In this document: one piece after another, positions 5,401-20,748 of the stretch
Position numbering within the stretch: the first letter of the stretch is position 1
Layout of the letters: each line of letters begins with the position of its first letter
Assembly: GCF_046042685.1 (NCBI RefSeq)
Contig: NZ_CP064950.1
Coordinates: 483,475-515,474 of the forward strand
Length of the DNA: 32,000 nucleotides
Reading direction: 5' to 3'
Source of the DNA: Pseudomonas sp. PLMAX
Lineage (GTDB): Bacteria > Pseudomonadota > Gammaproteobacteria > Pseudomonadales > Pseudomonadaceae
Translations under genes and position numbers: made by a program
The notes under the pieces: generated by a model
Told to the model about the DNA's origin: nothing
The model's input: the letters and a program-made list of their open reading frames with translations, nothing else
The model's database searches: none

Positions 5401-6146
5401 GCGCTGTCGGCGCCGGCGTCTTCGGATACACAGTCGACAACAATCGACTGAAGCACCTCGAAGTTGGCTTTACGGGAGAACATGCCGAGCACGATCTTAT
5501 CGACGTGGTTCAGCGGGGTACCGTAGCGCGAGAAGGCATAGTCTGCGCTCAAGCGCTTGATGTAATCCTGTTGCTTGCGATCAGACGAGCTCGGCTTCGA
5601 GTACTGAATCACAGCTTTGTAGTCGGCGTAGTTCTCGATCTGGTGCAGGCTGCACTCGACACCCAGCTCGCTCAAGCGGGCGCGGAAGTCGCGGTTTTTG
5701 ACCAGTTCGTCGTTGTCGAGCACGAACAGCTTCTTGTCATACCCGCTGCGGACAAAGCGGTAAAACACCTTGTCGCTGGACGTGTTGCTGTAGGCCACAA
5801 CCAGGCGCAGAGAGCCGTCATCACGCTGGTATTCGAAAACGATGTAACTCGTTGCGTTCGGCAGGTAGTACTCGATGAACGAGTCTTTGCCTGGCGAGAC
5901 CAGCTTGTTCGGGTTAACCCCGTAAAACAGAGGCAGGAACTGAAGCATCGAGGTCTTACCACGACCGTTACGACCAGTGATTACAGCACCGCCATCGGTC
6001 ACCAGCTCAGTGATACGCCCCTTGGCCAGGGAGTCGATCAGGAAGACTCGATTGATCTTGAACCCACTTTGGGTATCGGCCTTGGCCGGCATCATAGCGT
6101 TGTGACCGTCAGGCAATTCCACGGTGCTTTCTGTACTGGTGTCCAT
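2433..6146 (-). CDS. SMC/MukB/JetC-like ATPase with long coiled coil
   Basis: 1237-aa ORF. Walker A GRNGRGKTS at residues 58-66. Several hundred residues of A/E/K/Q/L-rich coiled-coil-type sequence follow. The C-terminal head half has 'SSNGLSYLVLVIIF' (a degenerate signature-motif region) followed by 'INLVWSLDELKAID' (Walker B D-E plus D-loop). AAGG Shine-Dalgarno about 6 nt upstream of the ATG. Confidence 0.85.
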   Translation of the reverse strand: MDTSTESTVELPDGHNAMMPAKADTQSGFKINRVFLIDSLAKGRITELVTDGGAVITGRNGRGKTSMLQFLPLFYGVNPNKLVSPGKDSFIEYYLPNATSYIVFEYQRDDGSLRLVVAYSNTSSDKVFYRFVRSGYDKKLFVLDNDELVKNRDFRARLSELGVECSLHQIENYADYKAVIQYSKPSSSDRKQQDYIKRLSADYAFSRYGTPLNHVDKIVLGMFSRKANFEVLQSIVVDCVSEDAGADSAQSIRSDRRKIEEWPRHYRAYTAVMGMQPVMHKAAEERENYGQVRETLSGVKSKLKLLAGHLATEEAKASKTATTSREARDTGASQHTQSVSEIEKNRVRAEIEVKELTGKVTALTELYEQYQADDITGKIARVDNAQQLKSDLETIESRLAALEGSFAVIGAKYEQIKVNLAGELESDRVRLRAEIDSIAQLCEDLIAKAEALYEEQEAKAESDAQAKHVTLKNAVQAASIELGTARQNAARPQADADVIQRVNTKDDEVTKLRRVRDEAVEKNRVATQALERVRKDDEAVDAAILKHIKKSGEQETLIEQIQLAHTPKEGTLLHLLRNELPEWKHDIAKVLREDILQRTDLNPELVENAHSIFGLRIDLDVLQPTELSDESLVLTQIEEARDVLSGLQAGKLKCEGDKAEIAVALKAATKSDNDAAKARLEAISQVQVAETELTALKFEHKKSLGEAQSLADAALVKAQANLDAANDALSQFQDHLSQEKALRRNALTQSRSRAVADRESGKTRIATALRNRELAHSNAIQECNAERDEALRKEGADVDKINQLKTEHERLKAELQLSRDAWQVVTQYKVWVKNEYPLREGYDQQAQAATAKEAALAGEITSLEAAWKLKSEELNATATAADQLVASLAKEAGQVTLGLERLSGFTDAAIDAYDPTWTTEALMSVLGESLEAEKSLLKKISGYVQQIRKSFNQQINTPPFDYMQEAAKRVSSDTGLEWLEIFKEWFETRHSDMKQILMVEVRTITAEIELFHRKLSTFSNRINSFNRELQKYLDNSTCFESLSGLTVSIISTVDELKFWPTVKRLVDARRDWSIASDDLPDMEFVQMLEGLLEHWEMKNGINADFKNLVQIRGEVVENGNIRTFKNSADLDNVSSNGLSYLVLVIIFIAFLNRIRRNVPINLVWSLDELKAIDSGNIYGLGKLLSQNNITLVSAFPDPDAETLMLFKNAYSIDADRRLVTTVVASNELNLHEVAANV

Positions 6147-6159
6147 AACCTACCTTAAC

Positions 6160-6181
6160 GAAAAAACCCCTCATGAGGGGT
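6160..6181 (-). terminator. Rho-independent terminator (minus strand) downstream of the 126-aa gene, directly abutting the RBS of the SMC gene
   Basis: Perfect palindrome ACCCCTCATGAGGGGT (6166-6181). On the minus strand it is followed by TTTTTT (A-run 6161-6166 on the plus strand). The minus strand reads ACCCCTCATGAGGGGTTTTTTCGTTAAGGTAGGTTATG. Confidence 0.7.
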
Positions 6182-6242
6182 ATGAATTGGAATGATGTCA
6201 ATATACAGCAATTGTTGCTGAAATTAAAGACTTTCCGGGGTT

Positions 6243-6623
6243 TTACCAGTACGTATAGGCGGCATTTTTCATGAATGGTTCGAGCAGCAGATTGTCCTCG
6301 CTGCCCGTCTTCAGGGCAGAGAGAATTTGCTGTCTGTGGGTACGCCGCAACGGGCGTTCGCAGAACACATTCGTGAATGCGGACGGGGCTTTTCGCATAG
6401 CGTTACGCGAGAGTGGCTGGCCTGCGTCGGAGTGAAGCTTGATTCGCTTCATCTCCAGGAAGCCCTGGTAAGTCTTGGCACCTTTGATCCAGCGGCGGAC
6501 AAAGAGCGAGGAGTGATGAGTAGGGTTGGAGGCTGCCCGCTGGGTTTCCCGTTCAAAGCCAACACGGTTCTCAAAGAACCAATCCTTGAATTGCTCGTCC
6601 CGGCGCCTAAGCGTTCTAGCCAT
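6243..6623 (-). CDS. Hypothetical basic protein (126 aa)
   Basis: The ORF fills the gap between the 533-aa gene and the terminator in the same orientation. The product is arginine/lysine-rich with no recognisable motif. An overlapping plus-strand ORF (6327..6932) is the alternative, but it would be antisense to the operon. Confidence 0.5.
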   Translation of the reverse strand: MARTLRRRDEQFKDWFFENRVGFERETQRAASNPTHHSSLFVRRWIKGAKTYQGFLEMKRIKLHSDAGQPLSRNAMRKAPSAFTNVFCERPLRRTHRQQILSALKTGSEDNLLLEPFMKNAAYTYW

Positions 6624-6659
6624 GCCCTGCTCTACCCCTTGTACCTTGCTCCCTCTACT

Positions 6660-8261
6660 TTAAATGCAGAGATCCTCGGTAAACAACTTTTTGCGCAAGT
6701 ACAGGTTCTTCCAATTGGAATCACGAACAAACTCCTCAGTGAAGATGTCCGGGTAGAGCTTCGCAAAGGCGTCAAAGGTGACCGGATCGAAGTTCCTGAT
6801 TGCGTCCATCGTGCGTGGATCTTTCCAGGTGCTGAGGAAATCGTCCCTGAGATGAATTGCAATCACGTGGCAATCTGGCTCCGCATGGCCGTAAGCGATG
6901 AGCTCCAGATGAGTCAGGTGATCGCGCTTTAACTCCAGCAGGTCGTACGCATCAATGCCGTGGTGGTAAATCATTAGCGCAGACACAAGCTTGGTCGCAG
7001 GCTCATGCGTCTTCAGGGTTGCGATGAGCTCTTTCTGCCTTGTCAGCAGCGCAAAAAGTACTGCGTTACAGTCGATCTTCAGCGACTTCATGAACTGTAG
7101 AGCGTCTTCTTCCGTCATGAATGGCTCTGGTACTGCGGTTCCGGCGATATCCCGAAGCTTGTTCAAGAATGCAGCGCCACCGTGTTCCGCCACAAACTCC
7201 GCCACCGAAACACCGTTAACCTGTAGAGCCCTGAGCAGCATTTTCCCGCGCTTTTCGCTCAATGGGTGTTCCAAGGCAAACCGGCGTCGAACTGAATCGT
7301 TCATCGTCTCTAGCAGCGAATGCCCCGCGCCGCGAATGCTCTCAAGGTCGAACGATTCGACGTCGCCCAAAATGCTATGGTGCACCGTAACCCTTACATC
7401 CAGGCTGTTGCACGCTTTGTGGTAACGCTCGACGTCCACCTCGTACAGCGCCGAGAGGATATTGGTAGAAGCGGTTTTTTTGAACACCTGAGTTGCGAGG
7501 TCAACAACCCGATCATCAGAGTCGGTCAACTCCGGGTTCGGGTAGTTGTACAGCTCACGCTCCAGCTTAAACATTTCCGGAAATTGCGCCATCCACCTCA
7601 GTGCCTCTTGGGAGCCCTCTTTCCCTCCTACTGCACTCATCAAGCACAACGCATCAGTCACTACAGCGCCATGGCTACGTTCGCTTAATAGGTAACCCGA
7701 TTCCACCATGTTCTGGATGAGCCCAGAACAAATCCGTGTAGCCATCGACGCCAGCGCCAAATCCTTTTTACTGGTCGCCCTGTAGGAAACGTGCCCCTCA
7801 GGCTCGTTCAGTAGGTGCCCCATCATCTGCGCCAAGCCGTTCTCGCTGTCCACGATGCCGCCAGCTTCAACGCACTCAATAGCGTTGTAGATATAGGGCT
7901 TTTCGGTACCACCTGAGATCAGGAATGAGAGCCCGGCCAGGATCTGCTCTTGCAATCGAATTGGGTTCGGGTTGATGCTCAGGCAGTGATGCAGAATTTT
8001 GGCCTGTACTACGTAATACAGCCGCCGCTCAAGCAGAATACCAATTTCAGTCTGGATCCTTTCCCGCAAGATTGATTGCTGGGCAATCGAGATGTCCAGG
8101 GCCTGAAACTTCGCTGCAAGATCTGGTATCAGCTCTTCCAGCTTTGTGGCTGCTTTATCCTGCCTGGTGAAATTGGCGTCACTCGTTAATACGCCGATGA
8201 GGCTCTTCAGCTCCATTACCTGGAGTGCTGTATCGCGGATCTTTTCCCTGGACGAGAGCAT
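6660..8261 (-). CDS. Hypothetical protein (533 aa) ending in the shared C-terminal tail ...RKKLFTEDLCI
   Basis: Long ORF. Its start ATG shares one nucleotide with the stop of the upstream exonuclease gene (TGATG). No motif recognised. The C-terminal heptapeptide matches the [FY]xx[ED]L[GSC][VIF] tail seen on other proteins in the window. Confidence 0.8.
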   Translation of the reverse strand: MLSSREKIRDTALQVMELKSLIGVLTSDANFTRQDKAATKLEELIPDLAAKFQALDISIAQQSILRERIQTEIGILLERRLYYVVQAKILHHCLSINPNPIRLQEQILAGLSFLISGGTEKPYIYNAIECVEAGGIVDSENGLAQMMGHLLNEPEGHVSYRATSKKDLALASMATRICSGLIQNMVESGYLLSERSHGAVVTDALCLMSAVGGKEGSQEALRWMAQFPEMFKLERELYNYPNPELTDSDDRVVDLATQVFKKTASTNILSALYEVDVERYHKACNSLDVRVTVHHSILGDVESFDLESIRGAGHSLLETMNDSVRRRFALEHPLSEKRGKMLLRALQVNGVSVAEFVAEHGGAAFLNKLRDIAGTAVPEPFMTEEDALQFMKSLKIDCNAVLFALLTRQKELIATLKTHEPATKLVSALMIYHHGIDAYDLLELKRDHLTHLELIAYGHAEPDCHVIAIHLRDDFLSTWKDPRTMDAIRNFDPVTFDAFAKLYPDIFTEEFVRDSNWKNLYLRKKLFTEDLCI

Positions 8262-8887
8262 CAGAAGAAGCCCTTTCCTGCGTTGACGTTGTTCAGTGAA
8301 GGCCTATCACGCCAAATGCTCTCCGACCGTCCAAACGCAACCGGCAGCAGCTGAGCGATGTTCTTGGCGTCGTCGATGCCCCGGTGTGCCGTGCCCACAA
8401 ACTGAAGGTTTTCGTAGCGCAAGGCTTTACCCAGGCCCGGCGAGTGCCGCTTCAAGCCCAAAGCATCCGCGTATACCTGCTTCACGTTCAGGTGATTTCT
8501 CTGAGAGATACCAGGCGCCGGCAGCTTCAGTAGCGATGCATTGCGATCAAATTGCTTTTTGTCGTAGGCACCCCAACTGCCCCAGCCGGCCACTGGGCCG
8601 AAGGACGATGCGCACTGCTCAAGCCAGGCATCAAGTGTAGTCATCGCCTCTGCGAATCCTGGAGCTGTATCGACGTCACTCTGAGTAATAGTCGTCAGCT
8701 TGGTGCAAAAAGCGGACAGTTGTGGGTGCACAACTGGCTTGATGTACGTCTGAAACTCAGAAATGATCTTTAGGTCTTGATCGACGAGGCAAGCACCAAT
8801 CTCGATAATTTCCATTTGGTCGCGATCAAATTGTGGTTCATCGCAGGTGGCCTCAAGATCAATGAGGCAGAATGTATTGTTCGACAT
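8261..8887 (-). CDS. DEDDh 3'-5' exonuclease (ERI-1 / KapD-like)
   Basis: 208 aa. Exo I 'CLIDLEATCDE', 'MEIIEIGAC', 'SWGAYDKKQF' and Exo III 'HRGIDDAKNIAQL' (H-x4-D) are all in the canonical order and spacing of the ERI-1/KapD subfamily. AGGAA RBS 5 nt upstream, and only 10 nt after the upstream gene. Confidence 0.88.
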   Translation of the reverse strand: MSNNTFCLIDLEATCDEPQFDRDQMEIIEIGACLVDQDLKIISEFQTYIKPVVHPQLSAFCTKLTTITQSDVDTAPGFAEAMTTLDAWLEQCASSFGPVAGWGSWGAYDKKQFDRNASLLKLPAPGISQRNHLNVKQVYADALGLKRHSPGLGKALRYENLQFVGTAHRGIDDAKNIAQLLPVAFGRSESIWRDRPSLNNVNAGKGFF

Positions 8888-8897
8888 TTTAGTTCCT

Positions 8898-10139
8898 TTA
8901 AACTCCTAGTTCCAAAGTGAATACCTTACCCTTCACGGCATTGCTTTTCAAGCGCGGAAGTATTGATTTATCTGATGTTTTTTCATATAGCTTTGCCAAT
9001 ATGTTGTCGGCCTGATCATCTTCGAATCTGCAAACCTGCTTGATGACTTTTTCCATTGGAAGTGACTTTAATAGCTCACCTACCATTGTGTTCACGTATA
9101 CAACTTTCGGGTCTTCATAGTTGCACAGGTCAACAGCCAACTCAGTGAGAAACCCAGACTCTCCAAGCTCTTCAAGATCCATTATCTTGCCGGCGCCCTG
9201 CCCCAGGACTCCGCAATAGAACAACTGAGCGGCCTGTCGAGTAGAAAAGTTAATTTTGCCTACGATTTCAGACATGAGCTCGCACTGGCTGGCATGGTGA
9301 GTCTCAAAATGGGCGTCGATCAGGTTCCGTGGCAGTAGCGCCAGCGACGTAAGGTCGCGCAGAAACTCAAGCCCAGACGTTTCGATGTATGCCATGACCT
9401 TCGGAAGCTCCATCAGCCCATCATCCCAAACCGTATTGAACGTCACACCGATACCCTGCTGGGCTCTCGTACGACCATCGATTGAGAACATGCCAAGCAG
9501 CTTTTCATGAATTTCACTGAAACTCATTTCCAGGGTTCCGTGAATGTTCTGCCTGACCTTGTGGCTGTCTTCATACTTCTGCAACTGAAGGTAGATTCTA
9601 TCAAGACCTCGCTTGCTTTCTCGAAGTGCTCCAGCAATCCTCTTAACCATCTTAGGATCGTCGGCTTTTACGTATTCCATCAGCTTTCGCTGTTCATTCA
9701 CGGTATGGAAAACCTGATAGATATCAAGAAACTCCTTGCTCTCAAAAATAGCGAAATCATCAAGTGGAACGCGCCGCAGCTCTGGAAATTTGACGTAATA
9801 GCCGCACTCAAAACCATCCATGTGATTGTTAATCGCTTGGCGGTTTGATCTTGCAAGTGTCCCGACCACCCATGTCACCATTGATTTATAGTCAGGCGCC
9901 GGAGCCGAAAGGGAGATCGCTATTATTTTCTCAATGGCACTCTTATAAACCTCGCGATCCATCGTGGGGAAAAGGTGCTTGGCCTCTAAAAGCTCTTCTG
10001 CCGTATGACCTTCAGAAATCACGAGCAAAATGAAGTCCTGGCACTGCTTGATCAGTGCTCTCACCCCTTCCTGTTCAATTTCTGGCGGGGAGCCCAGGTC
10101 GTGGCTACCAAGCGAGAAAACTACATTTTCACTGATCAT
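8898..10139 (-). CDS. Hypothetical protein (413 aa) ending in the shared tail ...KGKVFTLELGV
   Basis: Long ORF in a visibly AT-richer stretch and first gene of a minus-strand operon. No motif recognised apart from the C-terminal tail. Confidence 0.8.
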   Translation of the reverse strand: MISENVVFSLGSHDLGSPPEIEQEGVRALIKQCQDFILLVISEGHTAEELLEAKHLFPTMDREVYKSAIEKIIAISLSAPAPDYKSMVTWVVGTLARSNRQAINNHMDGFECGYYVKFPELRRVPLDDFAIFESKEFLDIYQVFHTVNEQRKLMEYVKADDPKMVKRIAGALRESKRGLDRIYLQLQKYEDSHKVRQNIHGTLEMSFSEIHEKLLGMFSIDGRTRAQQGIGVTFNTVWDDGLMELPKVMAYIETSGLEFLRDLTSLALLPRNLIDAHFETHHASQCELMSEIVGKINFSTRQAAQLFYCGVLGQGAGKIMDLEELGESGFLTELAVDLCNYEDPKVVYVNTMVGELLKSLPMEKVIKQVCRFEDDQADNILAKLYEKTSDKSILPRLKSNAVKGKVFTLELGV

Positions 10140-10277
10140 TTAGCTTGTTCCGAAGGTCTTGTCATGGCCCAGTATAGGCCGTGCGCCAGACCCCCAACAA
10201 AGGGAAATCGCCCACCCCGGCGACATTTTCTATGATATGTTCTTCCTTTCTAAGAGCGTTCACATAAGGCGCCGACC

Positions 10278-10877
10278 ATGATTGATCTCACTGGCTTTCC
10301 TATCTCCAACGCAGCACACAGCTCTGATGTAGGCCGATGGCACATCGTCGGCGCTCGCCGCAGACAATCGCTTGCAGAGCACTCGTTCAACGTGCCAATG
10401 TTTGCCACCTACCTGGTCGCAGCTGTCCACCCTGAAATCAGCGAGAGCGATCAGTTGCTGATGCTCTACGGCGGTATGTGGCACGATCAGGCGGAGAACA
10501 AGTCCGGTGACATCCCAACGCCGGCCAAACGTTATGTCGAGAAGTTTTTCCCCAAGGGGCAATCTCCTTTCGATGTCCTCGATGCTGCCATGTGCCCTCC
10601 CTACGCACGGCTCAAGACCAAGCTCGATGGGACTTACCTCGAAGTGATCCTGAAGCTGGCGGACATTATGGATGCTGCTCACTTCATCTCGACTGCAGGT
10701 AACGGAAACGAAGCAACACGCATCTGTGAAGAGCGTTGTAGAGCGTTTGCATCCTATGTCGACATAGGCAAAGCTAAGTGGCCCGAGCTAAACTGGGACG
10801 GCGCCCACACGGTGCTGCATGACTTGCTACACGGCGAGCCAGAGAGCCTCTCTTTCGATGAACTCTTAAGCCATTGA
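10278..10877 (+). CDS. HD-domain phosphohydrolase, YfbR-like 5'-deoxynucleotidase
   Basis: 199 aa. 'GRWHIVGARRRQSLAEHSFNVPMFATYL' ... 'GGMWHDQAENKSGDIPTPAK' ... 'LKLADIMDAAHF' reproduces the RW...E-H-S, H-D...GD-x-PTP-x-K and K-x-AD pattern of YfbR-type HD nucleotidases. The minus-strand ORF 10260..10682 is judged a shadow. Confidence 0.78.
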   Translation: MIDLTGFPISNAAHSSDVGRWHIVGARRRQSLAEHSFNVPMFATYLVAAVHPEISESDQLLMLYGGMWHDQAENKSGDIPTPAKRYVEKFFPKGQSPFDVLDAAMCPPYARLKTKLDGTYLEVILKLADIMDAAHFISTAGNGNEATRICEERCRAFASYVDIGKAKWPELNWDGAHTVLHDLLHGEPESLSFDELLSH

Positions 10878-10886
10878 GGTTGGCCA

Positions 10887-11459
10887 GTGAAACGACTGAT
10901 CATTTTTGACTTGGACGATACGCTGCTTCACGCAGAGCGTAAGCCCTTCGATCTGGCTCAGCTCCAGACCGAAAGCTTCTATATCGCCGTTCGCCCCGGC
11001 ATAACCTCGATGCTGGAGCGTTTGTCGCCCCATTATGACTTCGTGATCTGGAGCAACACCGACCGGGCCTCCATCGATGAGAAGATCGCCGACGTCTGGC
11101 CCAAGCATATCCCCCTCGTTGACATCTTCTGCGATAAAAACAGCAGCAAGCGCCACAACAACGGCCAGGGTGAGCATTTCTTTAAGGAGGTTTGGAAGGT
11201 CATCAAGCGCCATCCCCAGTACACACTGGGCTCGGTGCTTGGGATCGAGGACAAGCCGGAAACCTTCGTGCGCAACTACGGCAATGTGATCCGGGTGTCA
11301 CCCTTCTCCGGAGCCCCTGACCGGGAACTCGACGACCTCACTGATTATTTGCTCTCAATTGCCACGCACCCAAATTATAGAACGCTGGAGAAGCGGCACT
11401 GGAAAGCCGACCTCCGAAGGGCTCGGTATTACGAGGACGAAGAGACTCCGAACCCATAA
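10887..11459 (+). CDS. HAD-superfamily phosphatase, FCP1/NIF (CTD-phosphatase-like) type
   Basis: 190 aa with a GTG start and a GAGG RBS 7 nt upstream. Motif I 'LIIFDLDDTLLH' (DxDxT), 'YDFVIWSNTDRASID' (motif II region) and 'LGIEDKPETF' near the C-terminal motif position. It starts 9 nt after the HD gene. Confidence 0.7.
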   Translation: MKRLIIFDLDDTLLHAERKPFDLAQLQTESFYIAVRPGITSMLERLSPHYDFVIWSNTDRASIDEKIADVWPKHIPLVDIFCDKNSSKRHNNGQGEHFFKEVWKVIKRHPQYTLGSVLGIEDKPETFVRNYGNVIRVSPFSGAPDRELDDLTDYLLSIATHPNYRTLEKRHWKADLRRARYYEDEETPNP

Positions 11460-11513
11460 GCTCAATTTTGATCCACCGCTACCGCCCCAACAAATCCTTT
11501 GCATAGGTGCCCC

Positions 11514-12062
11514 ATGCTCGCACAGCCTCAACATCCCATTCACTACGCCTTCGGCATTGTTAGTCATGCTCCATCCGTGATGGAGGCTTGGGTTCACGAG
11601 CGCCTACTGATCAAAATTCAATACCATGTGCTCTACTTGGCCGTATTCTTCTATGCCGGGTACATCTACGCAGGTATGGGTATGGCCACCGATCTCGCGG
11701 GGATTGGCATCCTGAGCACCTTCCTCATGTCACTGCCGGCACAAGTCCTCAACGGAAAAAAATTCAGCCTGGAGCTCGTCAGCGACTCTTACTTCAACGC
11801 GGTGTTGGCTTTCCACGGATTTTTTCTCACGTATTTCATCGCGTACAACATCGTCACCCTCTTGGCCGCGTATTTCGGATCCTGGACGCTGGGCACGAGC
11901 AATGCCCTGATCTCCCTATCCACCTCCCTCATGATCGGGTACAGCATCCAGCTGGCGGTCACCTCGAACTACAAGCTCAGATGGTTCTTTGTACCCCTGG
12001 TATCTATCGGTCTTGGGTATGGGATGTTCAGAGCGCTTTCCACAGCTGGACTGCCTCATTAA
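11514..12062 (+). CDS. Multi-pass membrane protein (hypothetical); start uncertain (TTG 11499, ATG 11514 or ATG 11580)
   Basis: The track ORF 11499..12062 contains at least four long hydrophobic segments (e.g. YHVLYLAVFFYAGYIYAGMGMA, GIGILSTFLMSL, FHGFFLTYFIAYNIVTLLAAYFG, FFVPLVSIGLGYGMF). The overlapping R/H-rich ORF 11588..12106 looks non-coding. Confidence 0.65.
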   Translation: MLAQPQHPIHYAFGIVSHAPSVMEAWVHERLLIKIQYHVLYLAVFFYAGYIYAGMGMATDLAGIGILSTFLMSLPAQVLNGKKFSLELVSDSYFNAVLAFHGFFLTYFIAYNIVTLLAAYFGSWTLGTSNALISLSTSLMIGYSIQLAVTSNYKLRWFFVPLVSIGLGYGMFRALSTAGLPH

Positions 12063-12139
12063 AACGATTGCAAAGAATTGCCAAAACCTGCGGAAATGGT
12101 AGATAATTCAGGCTCAATCAAACATGGAGCAGTACCCAG

Positions 12140-12751
12140 ATGACCAATGTTGTCGCGAGCATTTCGCTTAAGAAGAAGGAAAAACTCAGCCTGCGTAAGG
12201 TTGCTCCAGGTCTGAGCCGTGTACGAGTTGCCATCACATGGCGTGCCGTCCAAGGCCAGGAAGTCGACCTCGACCTGAGTGGGTTTATGCTGAACGATAA
12301 AGATCGCATCCTCACCCAGCAGGACTTCATTTATTATGGGCAGGAAATCTCTCCAGACGGCTCTGTCCATTACCTGGGCGACAACCGCAAGGGCTCGGTG
12401 GATGACGGCAGTGGCTCGCTAGGTGACAGCGAGGCAATCAAAGTAAACCTCGACGACGTCCCGGAGCGGGTCAAGCGAATCGTCTTCGCCGTAACCATCG
12501 ACGGTGCTGACGAGAAACGCCAGAAGTTCAAGCACGCCTCTGAAGCTGTCGCTAGACTGTTCAACGACGTGACCGGTGCCGAAATTGCTCGTTTCCCTCT
12601 GGAAGGTGATTTCAAAGAAGATTCGGCCATGCTGATGGTTGATCTGCATCGTGAAGGCGACAGCTGGGACTTCAACCCGATTGGCCAGGGTTTTAAAGGC
12701 CACCTCGGCGACATCTGCAATTCATACGGCCTGGACATCGGTTACAACTGA
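12140..12751 (+). CDS. terD: TerD-domain stress/tellurite-resistance family protein
   Basis: 203 aa. 'ISLKKKEKLSLRKVAPGLSRVRVAITW...VDLDLSGFML', 'GDNRKGSVDDGSGSLGDSEAIKVNLDDVPERVKRIVFAVTI' and 'ARFPLEGDFKEDSAMLMVDLHREGDSWDFNPIGQGF' match the TerD fold signature, including the Ca-binding GDN/DDG segments. Confidence 0.9.
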   Translation: MTNVVASISLKKKEKLSLRKVAPGLSRVRVAITWRAVQGQEVDLDLSGFMLNDKDRILTQQDFIYYGQEISPDGSVHYLGDNRKGSVDDGSGSLGDSEAIKVNLDDVPERVKRIVFAVTIDGADEKRQKFKHASEAVARLFNDVTGAEIARFPLEGDFKEDSAMLMVDLHREGDSWDFNPIGQGFKGHLGDICNSYGLDIGYN

Positions 12752-12763
12752 TTTCCTCAGCCA

Positions 12764-12796
12764 TAAAAAAAGGAGCGCTAAGCGCTCCTTTTTGTT
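12764..12796. terminator. Bidirectional rho-independent terminator between convergent TerD and ligA genes
   Basis: AAAAAAA-AGGAGCGC-TAA-GCGCTCCT-TTTTG: an 8-bp perfect GC-rich stem (12771-12778 / 12782-12789) flanked by an A-run and a T-run. Confidence 0.85.
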
Positions 12797-12804
12797 GCCT
12801 TTAG

Positions 12805-14856
<2,052 letters not shown>

Positions 14857-14894
14857 CTACCGTAAATTGGATTTTTGTCAATTCATGCTTATCG

Positions 14895-14924
14895 TTGTGC
14901 GAAAGCCTGATCCAAAGGGATAAT
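14895..14924 (+). promoter_or_regulatory. Candidate sigma-70 promoter for the 628-aa gene
   Basis: TTGTGC (14895-14900), an 18-nt spacer, then GATAAT (14919-14924). It is followed by an AGGAG RBS 7 nt before the ATG at 14954. By-eye match only. Confidence 0.35.
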
Positions 14925-14953
14925 GCTTAAAACTCTTCCTTCAGGAGCCGCAC

Positions 14954-16840
14954 ATGGCCGACTCGATTGATACCGAGATTTCCAACCTTCTTCAACGGGC
15001 ACTGAAAGAGGGGCGCGAGGACGTCGCTAACGCATTGCGTCACCTTACCCCGGTTTCCGAACTGGCGAAGTCTCTCGCCACCACTTTGAAGCCAAGCGCC
15101 CACTTCACTGATGAATGGCGCGGCCTCTTAACCCGCAAGACCTACGGCCTGTTGGATGGCAGGGCTCTTACCTCCACAGCGCTGATGCAGAATGGGGAGT
15201 ACAGAGAGTTCCTGCTCAAGAAGCTACAAGGTCTGTCAGGGCAGGAAAGTGCTCACCACCTGACCCACGGCCTCATCTCTGCTGGCTTGCACTCTGAGGC
15301 GCTTCAGGGGCTCTCCAGCGATGAGGAGATCAAGTCGTTCAAGGCGTACTTCCAACAATATCTGAATAATGTCTTACCTCACTCTCAGTTCTTGTTCTAC
15401 ACCGAAACCGGTCAAGACCACTCGAACACACGAGATACCATCAAAATCCTGGACATGCTGGACTTGGATTTTCCGTCGACCTTCACGCCGTCTAATTATC
15501 CCGATCCAAAAAACGACAACACCAAGCCATGGGGTGATCAGCGCATTGAAATGAACATTGAGCTGGTCGGTTCAGTGATGACAGAGCTCAAGCTTTCTGT
15601 GCCTCAGCTAAGCACTGCACCTGGTGGTGGCTACAAGTGGTTGGAAGCGGATCTTCCAGCAGCTGTCACCCTGGAAAATCAGCGTGTCCAGAAGCTTGGC
15701 GGCTGGCACAAGGAAAACTTCCCGAGGTTTCTGCCTGTGATCGTTCCTGAGTCAAGTCTCGGCGACATGTTGGCACAAGGGGCAATTCCAGTTTGCCCAC
15801 TGAAAACCGTTCATTTCACGTCCAACCGGGGGGCCGGCTTTGACACGACGGAGCCAAGCAGGGAGTTTGTTCCGGTAACGCCGAATCATAGGGTGACGGA
15901 CAAAGATATCCGCCTCGCGTTTTCATTCTTTCCTCCCCAACTGGTAACCGGCCTTATCGAGAACGACTCACAGAGTCTGGTGATGATCCCGTTACAAACG
16001 ATCCCTCTGCTCGCGCCGACGAGTCCAAACATCGCGGATTCACTGAAGGCTGCAGTACGATTCCATCGACCAGAGTTGCTGATCAGTGATCAAAGCCGGG
16101 TGACCGGTGATTACACGAAAAACAGCCCGCTACCGCTTTACCTCAAGGGCTTTAAGATCCGGCAAGGGGAATACAGCCACCTGGACATCACTGACAACCT
16201 TAGCAGGCACCCTGATTTTATCGATTCACTCCTGCCTGCTGAGGTAGACAAACTTGCCAAATACTTCGTAGTCAAGAAGGAGTACGGTCGGGATTTCAAT
16301 AGGTTCTATGTAAATGAGCAAAGCGGTTTGACCACCCCTGAAAACGTGGCCCTGGCAAAACGCTCGATTGAAGCCCTTACCAATGCAATTGGGTACCCGC
16401 CAGCCGTTCACTATCGTGGATCACCGGAGTTCATCAAGGCCCTGGCAGAAGCCAAAGTCTACAGCTGTGACCGCTCCATATTCAGCAACCATAAAAATAT
16501 GAGTGGGGACTGGTACTCCACTGCTGAAGGCGTTCGTTGCGGCGGCACCATCGGGGAGACTGGCGGATTCGGCGAGTACGCTGATATGCCGTTCGACGAG
16601 CTGGTCATTAAGGGTACTCGCTTGAAAGACCCGGCCACCGGCTTCAACAAGCAGAAACAGGTCATCCTAGGCATCCTCGACCGCTACCCGCTTGAGGACG
16701 TTGTAGGCCTGGCGAAAACCGATGCTCAGTACAGGTTCCTGATGGACAACTTCGACCTGATGCCGGTAAGGCACTTGCTGCCGAAGCGCCTTGAGCTGGT
16801 TGTGGCTGGTAAGCAGTTCTCGAGCGAGCTTGGGTTCTGA
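14954..16840 (+). CDS. Hypothetical protein (628 aa) ending in the shared tail ...AGKQFSSELGF
   Basis: Long ORF with a strong AGGAG RBS and a terminator just downstream. No catalytic motif recognised. The C-terminal tail matches the window-wide motif. Confidence 0.85.
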   Translation: MADSIDTEISNLLQRALKEGREDVANALRHLTPVSELAKSLATTLKPSAHFTDEWRGLLTRKTYGLLDGRALTSTALMQNGEYREFLLKKLQGLSGQESAHHLTHGLISAGLHSEALQGLSSDEEIKSFKAYFQQYLNNVLPHSQFLFYTETGQDHSNTRDTIKILDMLDLDFPSTFTPSNYPDPKNDNTKPWGDQRIEMNIELVGSVMTELKLSVPQLSTAPGGGYKWLEADLPAAVTLENQRVQKLGGWHKENFPRFLPVIVPESSLGDMLAQGAIPVCPLKTVHFTSNRGAGFDTTEPSREFVPVTPNHRVTDKDIRLAFSFFPPQLVTGLIENDSQSLVMIPLQTIPLLAPTSPNIADSLKAAVRFHRPELLISDQSRVTGDYTKNSPLPLYLKGFKIRQGEYSHLDITDNLSRHPDFIDSLLPAEVDKLAKYFVVKKEYGRDFNRFYVNEQSGLTTPENVALAKRSIEALTNAIGYPPAVHYRGSPEFIKALAEAKVYSCDRSIFSNHKNMSGDWYSTAEGVRCGGTIGETGGFGEYADMPFDELVIKGTRLKDPATGFNKQKQVILGILDRYPLEDVVGLAKTDAQYRFLMDNFDLMPVRHLLPKRLELVVAGKQFSSELGF

Positions 16841-16859
16841 TCAGCGCGCTCCAAACGAC

Positions 16860-16887
16860 AACGCTCCCCTCGGGGAGCGTTTTTGTG
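16860..16887 (+). terminator. Rho-independent terminator after the 628-aa gene
   Basis: ACGCTCCCC-TCG-GGGGAGCGT followed by TTTTTG: a 9-bp stem (16861-16869 / 16873-16881) and a T-run (16881-16885). Confidence 0.8.
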
Positions 16888-16897
16888 CCTGGTGACT

Positions 16898-17782
16898 TCA
16901 GATGGCCAGGGAGTGCATGAAGGCTTTTGCGCGTACCTGCAAACTTTGGATGCTCTCCACAGCCGACTCCAGGCCAAGCTTAAAGGCCATCAACCTGAGC
17001 TCGTCAGTGTTCAGTTGATTGGTGATCGCTTCGTCATCCATGGCAAGGATCTCGCCGATAACCACCACGGCAGCGCTACGGTGCTTGGTTACCAGCTCCT
17101 CGCTATCGCCGTCGAACTTAGACCGCTTGATCATGTGCCTCATGACCGACGCCCAGTTATCCGGGGTGCCACGATAGCCGATACTGGCAGCAATGTTCTT
17201 AAGCACTACGTCCTTTGCCCTTGGGGTAACGGCGTACTCTCGCGCCCGGCTGAAGGATTGGTTTGAACAGTGCACAGATACCAGATCTTCAGCATAAGGC
17301 TTCCACAGTACCGGGATCTTCACCAACACCTCGTCATCCAGGGAGGCGAAGACCTGCAGCATGGAATGCTTTTCCGACCGCTTCAGCATCTGCCCAATGA
17401 TGTCCAGGCCAAGCTTGGGCCGGTCATTGGTCAACGCGTGGGTAAGGCTCGATTGCCAAAGATCGGCAGTCGTCGTCTCAAGCGCGCCCTGGAGCGACCA
17501 CATCTTGAGTTGCGTCCTGGCGAACGTTTCAGACATGTACTTCATGGTGGACAGGAAAACTCCCTTCCCCATACCTGTCGTTCGAGTCACGGTGTCAATC
17601 AGGGCCCTGTAGGCGCCCTCGTCCACGTCGTGACAAATGTCATGACCACTGACCAGCAAGGTCTTACTGATACCCACTGACCTGTATGGGTTGGAGGCGA
17701 CATTGAGAATCCATGCGTCGAATTCACCGTTCAGCCTGCTCCCAGGACTCAGCTTGCGGCCAATTTCTCCACTTAACGTCAC
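16898..17782 (-). CDS. Hypothetical protein (294 aa) with relaxed version of the shared tail ...RAKAFMHSLAI
   Basis: ORF in the same orientation as the upstream 413-aa and 565-aa genes and last gene of that operon. No motif recognised. Confidence 0.75.
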   Translation of the reverse strand: MTLSGEIGRKLSPGSRLNGEFDAWILNVASNPYRSVGISKTLLVSGHDICHDVDEGAYRALIDTVTRTTGMGKGVFLSTMKYMSETFARTQLKMWSLQGALETTTADLWQSSLTHALTNDRPKLGLDIIGQMLKRSEKHSMLQVFASLDDEVLVKIPVLWKPYAEDLVSVHCSNQSFSRAREYAVTPRAKDVVLKNIAASIGYRGTPDNWASVMRHMIKRSKFDGDSEELVTKHRSAAVVVIGEILAMDDEAITNQLNTDELRLMAFKLGLESAVESIQSLQVRAKAFMHSLAI

Positions 17783-17812
17783 ACCAACCTCACAATCTTG
17801 TTGTAAGCCATT

Positions 17813-19054
17813 TCAGACCCCCAGCTCTTGGGTAAATATCCTTGCCTGACCCACTAGCGATGCCTTGGCCTTCCAGCTCACGTCATCGGTCATCTCGGAC
17901 ATTGCAGCTGCCAAATCTGCTGGCAGTGCGCGCTTAAAAAGCGTCTGGGGAGGTATGCCATGAAATAACTTTTCAATGTCTACCTTGAGCGTATCAAAGG
18001 AGTCGCCCATAGGTCTCCTCCATTGCATCTCTTTCGCAAGCGAAGCCACCTTATCGATGGGGTTCAGGCCAGCACGGTAATCATCAGCTGTCAGCTCAAC
18101 GCCGGCGTCTTTGGCTTGGCACAACAGGCTGGCCATACCGGTCATCATGCCCCACAGCTTGCCCTGCCTGAGCAGCTCTACAGGCTTGTTGATGGAGTCA
18201 ATGTTGAAGGTGTCGAGCGCGAACCTCACTGCCGAATTCCAATACGCCAGGTTGTTGGCCTGGTTGAGATGCTCGCAAAGCGCCTCAGAGCTCTTCCAGA
18301 AGCTCATGACTGCCTTATTTAGGCTCACGGGCCCCATCGTCCCTTTGCCGGCCTGTACGCGGCTCAGCAGCTCCAGCTGGAGGGCTATGTCGCCACCTCG
18401 AGTTGGAACCATGATGTCAGGGGCGTCTTTGGCAAGAACCTGCTTAAGCGAATCAGACATTCCCGCATACACGACCTTAAACAGATCGAGATCCTCAGTC
18501 TTCAAAAGCGTTGTGGCAATAAAGGGCATATGAAATGCATCTTTGATCAGATGCTCATACCCGCCGCCAGGCTCCATTGGCCCGGCGTTCAGCGGCTCAG
18601 CCAAGACCTGTGACAGGCCCTGACGCACTGGCGACTCGAGCCACTCAGCCGGCTTCATGCGCTCCATGGCTTTGGTGCTGGTGTGCACCGTCAGCGACAT
18701 CGAGTTCTGGAAGCCCACCAGGTCATCCTGCGACTTGGGGAAAGCTGCCGGGAAGCTCTCCATGGCAAACCTCAGAAACTCAGCCGCATGGCGCCCCTCC
18801 CCCAGTTCTACTAGAGCGCTGCACAGGAAGAATGGATCGAGCCTTCCCTCAGAGCGATGCTTGGCGGAGGTTTCATGGGCCTCCAGCTCTGGGTACAAAG
18901 CTAGGGCACGATCATAGTTTTCAGCAACCGAGATCGGCGTTTCATTCAGGCGCCACATGACATCACGCGCCAGGGCCAGACCCATTTCAGTCCTGAGAGG
19001 GTCGTTCATCAGGGCCGGCTGGCCCTGGCTACGCTCTTCTTTGCGGGCTGTCAT
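17813..19054 (-). CDS. Hypothetical protein (413 aa) ending in the shared tail ...GQARIFTQELGV
   Basis: Long ORF. Its start overlaps the stop of the GHKL gene (ATATGACA, 4-nt ATGA overlap). No motif recognised apart from the tail. Confidence 0.8.
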   Translation of the reverse strand: MTARKEERSQGQPALMNDPLRTEMGLALARDVMWRLNETPISVAENYDRALALYPELEAHETSAKHRSEGRLDPFFLCSALVELGEGRHAAEFLRFAMESFPAAFPKSQDDLVGFQNSMSLTVHTSTKAMERMKPAEWLESPVRQGLSQVLAEPLNAGPMEPGGGYEHLIKDAFHMPFIATTLLKTEDLDLFKVVYAGMSDSLKQVLAKDAPDIMVPTRGGDIALQLELLSRVQAGKGTMGPVSLNKAVMSFWKSSEALCEHLNQANNLAYWNSAVRFALDTFNIDSINKPVELLRQGKLWGMMTGMASLLCQAKDAGVELTADDYRAGLNPIDKVASLAKEMQWRRPMGDSFDTLKVDIEKLFHGIPPQTLFKRALPADLAAAMSEMTDDVSWKAKASLVGQARIFTQELGV

Positions 19055-20748
19055 ATGGAAAGCTCTCCCTGGTACTCGTTGTGCTCTCTCCTGGCGGGGG
19101 CTCTACGCTTCTCCTCCACCTGTGGCGCAGGGATGGTGAAATCCACCTCGGCAGCCGCTTTCTTGAACGCCTTGACCAGGGTCATTTCCCCGATCTCATC
19201 GCGCATGATTCGACGCAGCTTGAACTCACCGGTGGTGAAGGATTCGCCATGGTGGGAATGCATCACGTGGTTGAGTTCGTGGTGCAGCACGTCAATGATG
19301 TCAGGGATCTTGAACCCTTCTTTACGCACCATTTCAGGGTTCAGCATGATACTGATGCGGTTATTTTGGGTGTCTTTAGCGTTCAGTCCGACAACAGAGC
19401 CGTAAACGAACCCAGGCTGAATCAGCAGATCATCCTGGAAGAATTGCCCCTTGGCATCCATCTTGATCCCAAGTGCAGTCCGGTAGCTCTCGTTTTCCAG
19501 GAGCACGCTCATCATCTTGCTCCAGCCGGCAGCGATCTTCGCATTGCGCTGCAGGCTCATACTGCTGGCGATCTGCGCGGAATGCGTGTGCGCGTTCTCC
19601 CTGCTCGTGTCGGAGTCGGAGAATTTCACTTTGAAGTTCGGCGGGTACCACTGACTTGGGATCTTGCTGATCTTATCGTCAAGCTTGCTTTTGATGTCCT
19701 TGACCTTGTCCAGCAGCCCGGTGAAAGGATGCATGGCGTCGAGCGAGCTGATTTCATCGGCTAGCGCGTTCAACTTTTCCATCACGGAGCTTGCGGTCAT
19801 GTTGAGGGACGCAGCCTGCTGCATTACCTCGTCCTGCTCCGCCTTGGATAGGGACTCGAATCTTACCGCCCGCTCATTCAGGGTCAGATCGATATCCCCG
19901 CTGAGCTTCAACTTCTCGCGGTCGTTTGCAAGATCTTGCATGATCTTGTTCAGGATCTCGGTCTTATCTTTGCTCAGCGAATCCCGGTTGGAGGTCAACA
20001 TCTCCAAGGAATGCCCTTTTAGCTCAAGAGCCCCGTGGAAAGCTGCGCCATCAGTCCACAATCTGGACTTAAACATCGCGAGTCCATTCATCCTGACCCA
20101 AATCGTGGACGTGGATGAGTAAGTGCTCTCGTAGTCGCCGAACGTAAGGTGCCCCAAAGCGGTTTCAAGTTTGTAGGGCTGAGGGGTTTTCTTGGCGGTG
20201 AGCGTCTCGCCGTTCAATGTGACTTTGATGTCTTTGCCGAGGTTGGAGGCTGATACCAGCTCGCGTAGGGCCTCTTCCATGCTCCAGGCGCTGTTATCCT
20301 CAGTCGTCATCTCGACTTCAAGGCGTACACCCTTACGGACGTCAGCGACTTCCTTCCAGCCATATTTGGCGGCGGTGCCCACGACCTCGAGGTTCTGAGT
20401 TTTGATCTTGTAGTTGAGATGCGCAAAGGCCAACAGAACCTTGGCATACCCGAAGCCACCGGTATTCCCATCCTCTTTCTGGCTCCCGCCCATCTTGAGG
20501 AACACGTTGATCAGGACATCCTGGTTCATGCCCTTGCCGTCGTCATCACACACGACCAAGAGCTTTTTAGCGTCATAGTCCTGCTTGATCGTGAAATCGA
20601 TGTTTTTGGCGCCAGCATCACGAGAGTTTTGCAGCGCTTCACGGGCCCATGCCAACTTGAAGTCGTTGTAGGAGAGCTTCTCCTTTACGAAGAAGTCGCC
20701 TGGTAGCTGAATGGTGCCGGCCTGGAGTTCGGTGTCTGGGGTATGCAT
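19051..20748 (-). CDS. GHKL (Bergerat-fold, HATPase_c-type) ATPase fused to a C-terminal HExxH metallopeptidase-like module; ends ...NEYQGELSI
   Basis: 565 aa. N-box 'EALQNSRDAG' (E37/N41/D44), G1 box 'VVCDDDGKGM' (res ~65-74) and G2 box 'TGGFGYAKV'. Near the C-terminus is 'VLHHELNHVMHSHHGE' (res ~488-503, nt ~19240-19287), i.e. HExxH with a further His six residues after the second His (metzincin-like spacing, with H instead of G in the middle). Confidence 0.75.
   Translation of the reverse strand: MHTPDTELQAGTIQLPGDFFVKEKLSYNDFKLAWAREALQNSRDAGAKNIDFTIKQDYDAKKLLVVCDDDGKGMNQDVLINVFLKMGGSQKEDGNTGGFGYAKVLLAFAHLNYKIKTQNLEVVGTAAKYGWKEVADVRKGVRLEVEMTTEDNSAWSMEEALRELVSASNLGKDIKVTLNGETLTAKKTPQPYKLETALGHLTFGDYESTYSSTSTIWVRMNGLAMFKSRLWTDGAAFHGALELKGHSLEMLTSNRDSLSKDKTEILNKIMQDLANDREKLKLSGDIDLTLNERAVRFESLSKAEQDEVMQQAASLNMTASSVMEKLNALADEISSLDAMHPFTGLLDKVKDIKSKLDDKISKIPSQWYPPNFKVKFSDSDTSRENAHTHSAQIASSMSLQRNAKIAAGWSKMMSVLLENESYRTALGIKMDAKGQFFQDDLLIQPGFVYGSVVGLNAKDTQNNRISIMLNPEMVRKEGFKIPDIIDVLHHELNHVMHSHHGESFTTGEFKLRRIMRDEIGEMTLVKAFKKAAAEVDFTIPAPQVEEKRRAPARREHNEYQGELSI

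Follow-up and report, generated by a model that had tools for sequence, protein, structure and literature searches.

A C-terminal tail shared by six proteins in the window

The window analyzed here, a 32,000-nucleotide stretch of DNA, belongs to an ~949-kb replicon of Pseudomonas sp. PLMAX that is related to the megaplasmid pMPPla107. Six of its 29 proteins (Table 1) have a C-terminus matching a tail pattern that can be written in relaxed form as [FY]..[DES][LF][GSCA][LVIF]. The pattern occurred internally only once in 9,653 positions of the window proteins, from which 0.003 terminal matches are expected by chance (Poisson P ~1e-18), and no spurious ORF of at least 150 aa in the window carried it. 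All six C-termini, which an earlier sequence-only reading had picked out, were confirmed on translation, and its statements that the tail codons differ and that recognizable housekeeping proteins lack the tail were both borne out.

Table 1. Tail-bearing genes in the window
Product	Position	Strand	C-terminal sequence	Last residues	Tail codons	Stop codon
533-aa ORFan	6660..8261	-	...YLRKKLFTEDLCI	...RKKLFTEDLCI	6663-6695	6660-6662
413-aa ORFan	8898..10139	-	...AVKGKVFTLELGV	...KGKVFTLELGV	8901-8933	
628-aa ORFan	14954..16840	+	...VVAGKQFSSELGF	...AGKQFSSELGF	16805-16837	
294-aa all-alpha protein (relaxed tail)	16898..17782	-	...VRAKAFMHSLAI	...AKAFMHSLAI	16901-16933	
413-aa ORFan	17813..19054	-	...VGQARIFTQELGV	...QARIFTQELGV	17816-17848	
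565-aa GHKL ATPase (HATPase_c_3)	19051..20748	-	...REHNEYQGELSI	...HNEYQGELSI	19054-19086	

Conservation in orthologs, a check named in the sequence-only reading, was evident in five other plasmid lineages, where the tail is kept at 25 to 40% protein identity. The gene for the 533-aa protein, which has no Pfam match, is cotranscribed with an RNase_T exonuclease and an MksB/MksE-like operon; its pPL1 ortholog (31% identity) ends in ...LKHIFSEDLGL. The first 413-aa protein in Table 1 matches no Pfam family over the curated cutoff, has a weak profile link to the largest tail superfamily of pMPPla107, and has a pPL1 ortholog (29% identity) ending in ...GRAKVFVDDLSI. Orthologs of the 628-aa protein end in ...AGDNFSKDLGL (pPL1, 36% identity), ...TKRFATDLGL (pMPPla107, 27%), and ...REKLSTDFEL (FeN3W, 24%), and a syntenic 632-aa gene on a 903-kb P. 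aeruginosa contig ends in ...NKRAARTLNL. For the second 413-aa protein, whose gene start and the upstream gene's stop share a 4-nt overlap, the corresponding endings are ...QGKIFGEDLGL (pPL1, 39%), ...RDEILMSDLGL (pMPPla107, 26%), ...KKPILLSQLDL (FeN3W, 22%), and ...KSKAMMLRLSL (syntenic 396-aa gene on the P. aeruginosa contig); in four close homologs, the E, L, and G of ELGV and the Phe at -6 (counting the last residue as 0) are invariant. Orthologs of the 294-aa protein end in RSKAFEHSLAL, ARDKAFGHDLGL, SQALEFTLGI, and KKAALVHGLSL, and KSRAMGFAMSL is the ending of its syntenic 293-aa counterpart on the P. aeruginosa contig. The AF2 model of this protein has 21 helices (pLDDT 86), with the tail inside the last one (residues 281 to 293) and lower pLDDT values of 72 and 62 in the last two 10-residue blocks; compared with PDB folds, the model gave no significant match.

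The 565-aa GHKL protein, which also has a weak, subthreshold Pfam match to a WLM-like metalloprotease, is the only window carrier with recognizable domains. It has 1,348 homologs among 1.84 billion representatives, but the alignments end at about residues 517 to 535, and the tail pattern was found in 1 of the 150 representatives listed. Since homologs outside the megaplasmids lack the tail, it is an add-on on this carrier. Its megaplasmid orthologs end in AYTHEFNF (pPL1) and PSYGM (P. aeruginosa 903-kb contig).

The tail is spread over a megaplasmid family and is selected as protein

The earlier count of five to six carriers proved a large underestimate, as the tail is found replicon family wide. 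On pMPPla107, 147 of the 1,063 ORFs of at least 150 aa end exactly in DLGL, the next most common four-residue ending occurring 5 times, and 164 ORFs (~16% of genes, 23% of coding capacity) carry the tail. The sequence-only reading had suggested looking for replicon-wide enrichment of the ending; among 965 nonoverlapping genes, DLGL closes 146, whereas 0.04 would be expected. Away from the C-terminus, DLGL stays at chance level in this set (15 versus 12.5 expected), indicating that the peptide is needed at a free C-terminus. About one-sixth of the proteins on this ~1-Mb Pseudomonas megaplasmid family share the ending ...Φ-x-x-D/E-L-G-L/V-COOH, and we found no published description of this C-terminal label.

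The pMPPla107 tails use all six Leu, four Gly, two Asp, and six Arg codons and all three stop codons, and no DNA conservation was seen 3' of the stop codon in these genes; selection therefore acts on the protein, as had been proposed, rather than reflecting a DNA repeat. The view that the carriers are otherwise unrelated also held, with no similarity among the six window proteins in blastp. With the tails removed, the pMPPla107 carriers formed 95 blastp groups, which iterative HMMs reduced to 83, so that by profile comparison they represent at least 83 families without mutual similarity. Pfam gave 1 match among 93 carrier representatives. Carriers are mostly all-alpha ORFan proteins, rich in Leu, Ala, Asp, and Glu, and free of Pfam repeats; a TM-like stretch was seen in 12 of 164, and signal peptides and TM segments are otherwise lacking.

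In 95 representatives, the composition by position reads R(-10), D/E(-9), Φ(-6), G/A(-5), and D-L-G-L. Position -5 is G in 46 and A in 30 (76/95 together) and Q in 3, and in the window tails this residue is T, S, Q, or M. Conservation ceases N-terminal to position -10, where the tail follows a linker rich in Ser, Pro, and Gly. Across unrelated families, every plasmid lineage shows a flavor of its own (RDxxΦGxDLGL, GxxFSxDLGL, GKxFTxELGV, ...SELDI, or ...RLSL), and the flavor shifts in concert in orthologous and nonorthologous carriers alike. Such a concerted change among plasmid lineages living in a single host genus argues for a coevolving reader encoded by the element itself. The tail was also found on an ~120-aa family (...IRDxxFAADLGL) in chromosomal defense islands of Pseudomonas, beside Lamassu-like and toxin-antitoxin (TA)-like genes and without megaplasmid or type IV secretion system (T4SS) genes in the 8 to 20 kb examined; chromosomes with small tail-bearing proteins include some apparently without the plasmid.

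Candidate readers of the tail

The proposal that the tail is an address label stands as the best reading, given the protein-level selection, the conservation in orthologs, the unrelated carriers, and the add-on on the GHKL protein. The label most likely directs otherwise unrelated proteins to one putative plasmid-encoded machine. Among the candidates, we rank the T4SS coupling complex first, followed by the FtsH paralog, a scaffold or compartment, and a host hub.

A role as a translocation signal for the coupling complex of a Dot/Icm-like T4SS is our leading, if tentative, candidate. The same element carries a type IVB system with its coupling protein (the plasmids are typed MPF_I), including DotA/TraY, DotG/IcmE, DotH/IcmK, DotI/IcmL, and DotD. 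The 848-aa coupling protein has TraG-D_C and TrwB domains. All four members of the family in PLSDB conserve it, with a C-terminal stretch of ~170 residues that is family specific. Legionella effectors likewise make up ~10% of the proteome, are rich in ORFans, and are grouped in paralog families. Dot/Icm signals, which are read by a coupling-protein complex, are likewise short and C-terminal and sit on hundreds of unrelated, fast-evolving ORFans, whereas the tail is a rigid consensus of 7 to 11 residues that must end the protein, and the system here belongs to a conjugative Pseudomonas megaplasmid. A Pseudomonas type IVB system delivers effectors to bacteria, and Legionella adaptors read the short motifs EExxE and FxxxLxxxK (PMC9519443); as defined there, neither the E-block (EExxE at about -10 to -17) nor FxxxLxxxK was present in the 95 representatives. 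Conjugative T4SSs move many proteins via C-terminal signals, but known T4SS signals are fuzzy (PMC11288057). Also against this reading, the annotations show no tail on the proteins whose transfer would be expected (SSB, primase, ParA/ParB) and no recognized relaxase, the chromosomal ~120-aa family has no megaplasmid or T4SS genes within the 8 to 20 kb examined, and the plasmids conserve other candidates, namely, a membrane FtsH paralog and Sel1-repeat proteins.

It is less likely that an AAA+ machine of the plasmid, whether its FtsH paralog or another AAA+ ATPase, reads the tail as a tether or degron. Either the carriers would themselves be degraded, giving coordinated turnover, or they would be adaptors in which a variable alpha-solenoid binds the target and the constant tail plugs into the protease. 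SspB-XB/ClpX and F-box proteins are models for the latter arrangement; F-box and SOCS-box proteins also form large, rapidly diversifying families sharing only a short docking element, although the analogy is one of design, with no sequence or structural relation. The 681-aa AAA+/Peptidase_M41 protein of pMPPla107, with two TM segments, Walker A, and HEAGH, is kept at 47 to 56% identity in all four PLSDB family members, but neither gene position nor regulation gave evidence of a link between it and the tail genes. FtsH/ClpX-type enzymes read nonpolar C-termini of the Φ-small-Φ-COOH kind in which the tail necessarily ends, the one modeled carrier (294 aa) is predicted to be helical and solenoid-like as is typical of binding scaffolds, and the defense-island setting of the chromosomal family would fit. 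Natural C-degrons are usually loose, however, and it is hard to see why 23% of coding capacity would be marked for destruction. The tail resembles the ssrA tag, the SspB XB tail, and FtsH-read termini as a peptide of ~11 residues with a Φ-small-Φ end and a free carboxylate, and the FtsH paralog is available as a possible reader; unlike in those systems, the flavor is lineage specific, and unlike the ssrA tag, the tail is encoded in each gene rather than added by tmRNA. An ssrA-type degron for host ClpXP, suggested in the sequence-only reading, is disfavored by these shifts and by the megaplasmid family's own tmRNA, the tag of which (ANNDNFDAPVALAA) keeps the canonical ending (...PVALAA), so that the tail is a separate code. 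Its endings (L-G-L, L-G-V, L-C-I, and L-S-I) also differ from the L-A-A-COOH of ssrA-like C-motif 1. Docking to a plasmid scaffold, compartment, or receptor that collects the tail proteins at a single site, such as a Sel1/TPR-type carboxylate-clamp receptor, an encapsulin-like shell, or a condensate hub, ranks behind the AAA+ machine and is unlikely. Like PTS1 (read by PEX5-TPR) and encapsulin cargo peptides (that of Thermotoga maritima contains GGDLGI), the tail is a rigid, short, strictly C-terminal consensus on diverse cargo; a coevolving receptor is expected there too, which the lineage flavors fit, and a Sel1-repeat gene (pMPPla107 900968-901981) lies among tail genes. The cargo here would nevertheless be alpha-helical ORFans, not enzymes, on megaplasmids without a known receptor, shell, or compartment; the Sel1 neighborhood is a single case. 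No encapsulin/HK97 protein is annotated on pMPPla107, where most genes are "hypothetical". The endings L-G-L, L-G-V, L-S-I, and L-D-I have the form of strictly terminal class II PDZ ligands (Φ-x-Φ-COOH); no PDZ or shell protein or other receptor is annotated there. A type I secretion signal would call for an ABC exporter, MFP, and OMF encoded by the element and for RTX or Gly-rich repeats in the substrates; the only efflux sets annotated are of the RND and MFS types, and the carriers have no Pfam repeats.

We consider it improbable that a conserved host hub (the beta sliding clamp, the hydrophobic pockets of ClpP, ClpX/ClpA, or CysK) is the binding partner of the tail. Its last four residues, [SD]-L-x-L, have the form of the end of the hexapeptide clamp motif QLxLxL, which is often C-terminal (Pol IV has QLVLGL and Hda QLSLPL), L-G-[LF] resembles the ClpP-docking loops [LIV]-G-[FL], the window tail genes lie among DNA metabolism genes, and small tail proteins occur in chromosomes apparently lacking the plasmid. 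Yet the Gln that defines position 1 of the clamp motif (QL[SD]LF or QLxLxL) is missing, Q being rare at -5; 160 clients are far past any known hub, and an almost invariant hub would not drive the change among ELGV, DLGL, ELDI, and RLSL within one host genus. No dnaN is annotated on the plasmid. Very improbable is a structural element with no signal function, the best-kept remnant of one giant, extremely diverged paralog family. Many carriers do lie in tandem paralog arrays, all those examined look alpha-helical, and the iterative profiles, besides merging groups (the largest to 28), recruit essentially only tail-bearing ORFs. Still, 63 groups remain singletons, carrier lengths run from 160 to 670 aa, hhalign gave a probability of 0.5% between the window families of the 294-aa and 413-aa proteins, the GHKL-WLM protein comes from a widespread tailless family, and conservation stops at the linker. 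The concerted change of flavor across families points instead to a shared external constraint.

Returning to the secretion reading, we infer a single, plasmid-encoded reader. The tail would be a C-terminal recognition peptide, probably a short, Gly-capped amphipathic helix presenting Φ(-6), L(-2), Φ(0), and the free carboxylate, on about 160 ORFan proteins that are mostly all-alpha and unrelated in other respects. An element-encoded receptor would read the tail and coevolve with it, and this receptor would most likely be the coupling-protein complex of the Dot/Icm-like type IVB secretion system (MPF_I) that the plasmid encodes. If this is true, the tail proteins would be a large substrate repertoire injected into the recipient or target cell, with or without DNA.

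Tail on the window proteins and their orthologues

Translation returned exactly the six C-termini listed in the sequence-only reading, each ending in the peptide we call the tail (~Φ-x-x-D/E-L-G-L/V-COOH; position 0 is the last residue). The relaxed pattern [FY]-x-x-[DES]-[LF]-[GSCA]-[LVIF] closed 6 of the 29 window proteins, against 0.003 expected terminal matches (P~1e-18); it occurred at one of 9,653 internal positions of these proteins and in none of the spurious window ORFs of at least 150 aa. The claim that the six carriers are otherwise dissimilar held up: blastp among them found no similarity, and the 294-aa and 413-aa families, compared profile to profile, gave a probability of 0.5%. 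Five of the six matched no Pfam family above the curated cut-off; the sixth (565 aa) is a GHKL ATPase that also matches a WLM-like metalloprotease, weakly and below threshold. The AF2 model of the 294-aa protein (pLDDT 86) has 21 helices, with the tail in the last, less confident one, and showed only generic alpha-solenoid similarity and no significant match in the PDB.

Within two operons, 565-413-294 and 413-exonuclease-533, overlaps of 4 nt (ATGA, 19051-19054) and 1 nt (8261) between adjacent genes suggest translational coupling. An SMC-like condensin/Wadjet-type set, followed in the source contig by a DUF7281 gene, is apparently cotranscribed with two tail genes and a gene for an RNase_T-type exonuclease. 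Three window genes without the tail, for a patatin-like phospholipase, an MvaT-like protein, and LigA, are conserved and syntenic in all family members examined.

Megablast found no close DNA relatives of the window in plasmid and phage collections; protein searches placed it in a family of Pseudomonas megaplasmids, ~1 Mb in size, whose type is pMPPla107, and the PLMAX replicon encoding the 294-aa protein measures 948,989 bp. The tail, initially read as an address label, is conserved in orthologues: all six in P. silesiensis pPL1, the closest complete relative and syntenic with the window, keep one at 29–62% identity (IFSEDLGL, VFVDDLSI, NFSKDLGL, AFEHSLAL, IFGEDLGL, and AYTHEFNF). Over the 50 kb of pMPPla107 that are syntenic with the window, DLGL ends 8 of 51 annotated proteins; the 628-, 294-, and 413-aa window proteins have orthologues, 26–31% identical, among these eight. 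A search of 1.84 billion representatives gave 1,348 homologues of the GHKL–WLM protein, with alignments ending near residue 517–535, and the tail pattern is missing in 149 of 150 homologues among the matches listed; judged from sequence, the tail is an add-on to this protein. The closest megaplasmid-type homologues (P0030-P0037) end ...EYGY, ...SGYGM, ...PSYGM, or ...PEYNY, and this aromatic-Gly/Asn-Φ ending may be a further version of the tail.

Tail census on pMPPla107

The sequence-only reading had proposed counting tails on a complete replicon, and in all 971,889 bp of pMPPla107, exact DLGL ended 147 of 1,063 ORFs of at least 150 aa, the next commonest four-residue ending occurring 5 times; [DE][LFIM]G[LVIFM] ended 164 ORFs. 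In a nonoverlapping set, DLGL closed 146 of 965 genes versus 0.04 expected. Internal DLGL was near chance (15 observed versus 12.5 expected), and the peptide therefore matters only at a free C-terminus. Tail genes account for 23% of encoded residues, many standing in tandem arrays of ~400-aa paralogues, and the first 174 kb, where the replisome, T4SS, type IVb pilus, and radical-SAM clusters are found, contains no tail gene.

With their tails removed, the 164 proteins fell into 95 blastp groups; trimming the last 35 residues and searching iteratively with profiles reduced these to 83 (the largest of 28 and 14, with 63 singletons), and the carrier profiles pulled in essentially only tail-bearing ORFs. 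Taking a single member of each blastp group (n=95) gave the consensus counts R(-10) 54, D/E(-9) 89, F/L/M/I(-6) 92, G/A(-5) 76, D(-3) 91, L(-2) 88, G(-1) 95, and L(0) 93, preceded by a Ser/Pro/Gly/Lys-rich stretch with no conservation farther upstream. No Pfam domain is common to 93 carrier representatives, the one match being a SIR2 protein whose EFGL ending is probably due to chance. Carriers are rich in Leu, Ala, Asp, and Glu, and 12 of the 164 have a transmembrane-like stretch.

All synonymous Arg, Asp, Leu, and Gly codons and all three stops occur in the pMPPla107 tails, and the 40 nt downstream of the stop carry no information content, which rules out a DNA repeat as the origin, in agreement with the sequence-only reading. 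No convincing promoter k-mer was common to the regions upstream of tail genes. The tail is thus strictly C-terminal, under protein-level selection, borne by many unrelated proteins, and, as described below, shifting in concert by lineage.

Coordinates of features
Feature	Replicon or locus	Coordinates	Strand	Remark
533-aa tail protein	window	6660-8261
413-aa tail protein	window	8898-10139
628-aa tail protein	window	14954-16840
294-aa tail protein	window	16898-17782
413-aa tail protein	window	17813-19054
565-aa GHKL–WLM tail protein	window	19051-20748
Two tail genes, exonuclease gene, and condensin/Wadjet-type set	window	537-10139	-	DUF3584 MksB-like (1,237 aa), MksE, 428-aa protein
NAD-dependent LigA	window	12805-14820		no tail
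Patatin-like phospholipase, 784 aa	window	24362-26716		no tail
MvaT-like nucleoid protein	window	27125-27517		no tail
FtsH paralogue	pMPPla107 (L017 20828-22873)	720828-722873	-	annotated only "AAA family ATPase"
tmRNA and SmpB	pMPPla107 (L019 37336-38265)	837336-838265
tRNA clusters	pMPPla107	650-653 kb, 707-711 kb, 908-909 kb		two more at ~852.7 kb
~120-aa gene with Lamassu-like operon	P. simiae CP007637.1 (L147)	6267-10864		413 aa, MC3, LmuB_C
Matching Lamassu-like/~120-aa gene/antitoxin-like arrangement	L148	6197-10786
99.98%-identical segment	L033 vs L125	3065-8000 vs 1-4936

Lineage versions and the candidate readers of the tail

The tail differs in form from one megaplasmid lineage to the next: R-D-x-x-Φ-[GA]-x-D-L-G-L in pMPPla107 and the P. 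fluorescens plasmid pMPCFBP13716, E-x-[FIL]-L-x-x-D-L-G-L in pBASL58, G(-9)-x-x-F-S-x-D-L-G-L in pPL1 (~28 tails in the 345 kb sampled), and [GA]-[KR]-x-F-[TS]-x-E-L-G-V in PLMAX (window plus flank), where ELGV ends 3 of 7 tails. Orthologues in FeN3W end SELDI, SDLDI, TDFEL, SQLDL, and HGLSL, and syntenic genes of a P. aeruginosa 903-kb contig end RLSL, AMSL, TLNL, and SYGM. Within one plasmid, unrelated families show the same shift, and orthologues track their plasmid's version. Since the shifts are concerted by plasmid and the hosts of all compared lineages are Pseudomonas, whatever reads the tail appears to coevolve with the plasmid and is therefore probably plasmid encoded; we infer a single receptor of this kind.

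The possibility that we rank first, tentatively, is that the tail is read by the T4SS coupling complex, because the Dot/Icm-like T4SS (typed MPF_I) is the only protein-translocating machine on the element, because the carriers resemble an effector repertoire (ORFan, fast evolving, in paralogue arrays), and because there are precedents in a bacteria-killing Pseudomonas T4BSS and in Legionella adaptors that recognize short linear motifs (PMC9519443), as well as in conjugative T4SSs that move many proteins via C-terminal signals (PMC11288057). The 848-aa coupling protein is 62–79% identical across the family, its last ~170 residues being family specific. Against this, SSB, primase, and Par proteins lack the tail, a ~120-aa chromosomal family carries it with no T4SS nearby, and the consensus of the tail is rigid, whereas known T4SS signals are fuzzy. 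Homologues of the coupling protein (46% identity, the alignment stopping at residue 677 of 848) occur on ~900-kb Vibrio megaplasmids (H35-H38; V. parahaemolyticus and V. vulnificus plasmids of 880-940 kb). Type I secretion is ruled out by the lack of an ABC exporter and of RTX features, and C-terminal modification by an ATP-grasp enzyme found nothing in its favor beyond one such gene flanked by tail genes.

A more doubtful reading makes the tail a tether or degradation signal for a plasmid FtsH paralogue, a full-length membrane protein with two transmembrane segments, a Walker A motif, and HEAGH that is 47–56% identical within the family and kept in all four members in PLSDB. The sequence-only reading had suggested an ssrA-like degron; a host ssrA-type route is unlikely because pMPPla107 encodes its own tmRNA (tag ANNDNFDAPVALAA) and SmpB, and the sequence of that tag also rules out tmRNA tagging as the source of the tail. 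ARAGORN found ~50 tRNA genes in the six pMPPla107 loci scanned, and the plasmid also bears tuf, serS, and trpS. About as doubtful is a scaffold or compartment receptor that reads the tail; Sel1-repeat proteins, one of them encoded among tail genes, would be candidates, and no encapsulin or PDZ gene is annotated on pMPPla107. Binding to a host hub is improbable, given a reader that probably belongs to the plasmid; dnaN and clpP are likewise not annotated on pMPPla107. That the tail is a structural relic of one family seems very improbable beside 83 profile groups.

Chromosomal family with the tail

A degenerate DNA pattern for the tail gave 4 single hits in IMG/VR, at chance level, which rules out a phage origin. 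A scan of 185,579 species genomes gave at least 120 matches. Among the matches listed, ~35 came from pMPCFBP13716 alone, and most outside Pseudomonas showed no tail ending an ORF of at least 120 aa; the few that did look like chance matches. Several Pseudomonas and Stutzerimonas chromosomal contigs among the matches listed encode a ~120-aa family ending …IRDxxFAADLGL, the pMPPla107 version. Its loci share no genes with pMPPla107 and lie in variable, defense-island-like contexts; no neighbor is common to all, with a CcdA/ParS-like gene following in three and Lamassu-like genes preceding in two. In P. simiae, the gene stands directly after a Lamassu-like operon (MC3, LmuB_C) and before the CcdA/ParS-like gene, and P. 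qingdaonensis has the same arrangement with degraded Lamassu genes. The downstream gene (L147 and L148) is CcdA/Xre_MbcA_ParS_C antitoxin-like, and the same island also carries reverse transcriptases and AbiEii; an SMC-like operon (Lamassu LmuB) here, too, adjoins tail genes. Stutzerimonas stutzeri 95A6 and Pseudomonas helleri share, at 99.98% identity, a 4.9-kb segment with the small tail gene, which indicates that this segment was recently transferred horizontally.

Model and implications

The tail peptide is predicted to be a short, Gly-capped amphipathic helix, given the AF2 helices at tails (294-aa protein, pLDDT 86; ~120-aa protein, pLDDT 55, a model too poor to use), the positions of Φ(-6) and L(-2), which are spaced i/i+4, and a stretch rich in Ser and Pro at ~-14 to -12. 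We speculate, with considerable reserve, that the megaplasmids use a private sorting code that drifts by lineage and has been copied by host defense islands. An element-encoded receptor would read the helix-capped C-terminal peptide, and a single machine would thereby recruit more than 150 alpha-solenoid proteins, diversified as they are; the code would drift with each plasmid lineage in lock-and-key fashion; and the ~120-aa chromosomal protein directly downstream of Lamassu-like genes would perhaps act by intercepting or jamming the reader of the plasmid.

Labels at the C-terminus are familiar devices; this tail fits none of the testable known codes, and its load per replicon is unprecedented. 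Full-text searches, and the parts of the pMPPla107/pBASL58 comparative paper reached by term searches, gave no report of it. On these ~1-Mb plasmids, one-quarter of the coding capacity is "hypothetical protein," and the tail is a first handle on it, singling out per plasmid ~160 proteins as a coherent set whose members necessarily have a common partner or fate. Were the partner the T4SS, no other conjugative type IVB system would have so large an effector repertoire, and the tail would be the first rigid consensus signal of such a system, making substrate prediction trivial; were it a protease or scaffold, this would be a sorting or adaptor system that is new and plasmid encoded. Being short, portable, and lineage specific, the peptide is directly testable in the established pMPPla107 conjugation model, and it is potentially useful as an orthogonal tag. 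A private code, if true, would add a new layer to plasmid-host conflict and would represent a plasmid-specific addressing system of a new kind.
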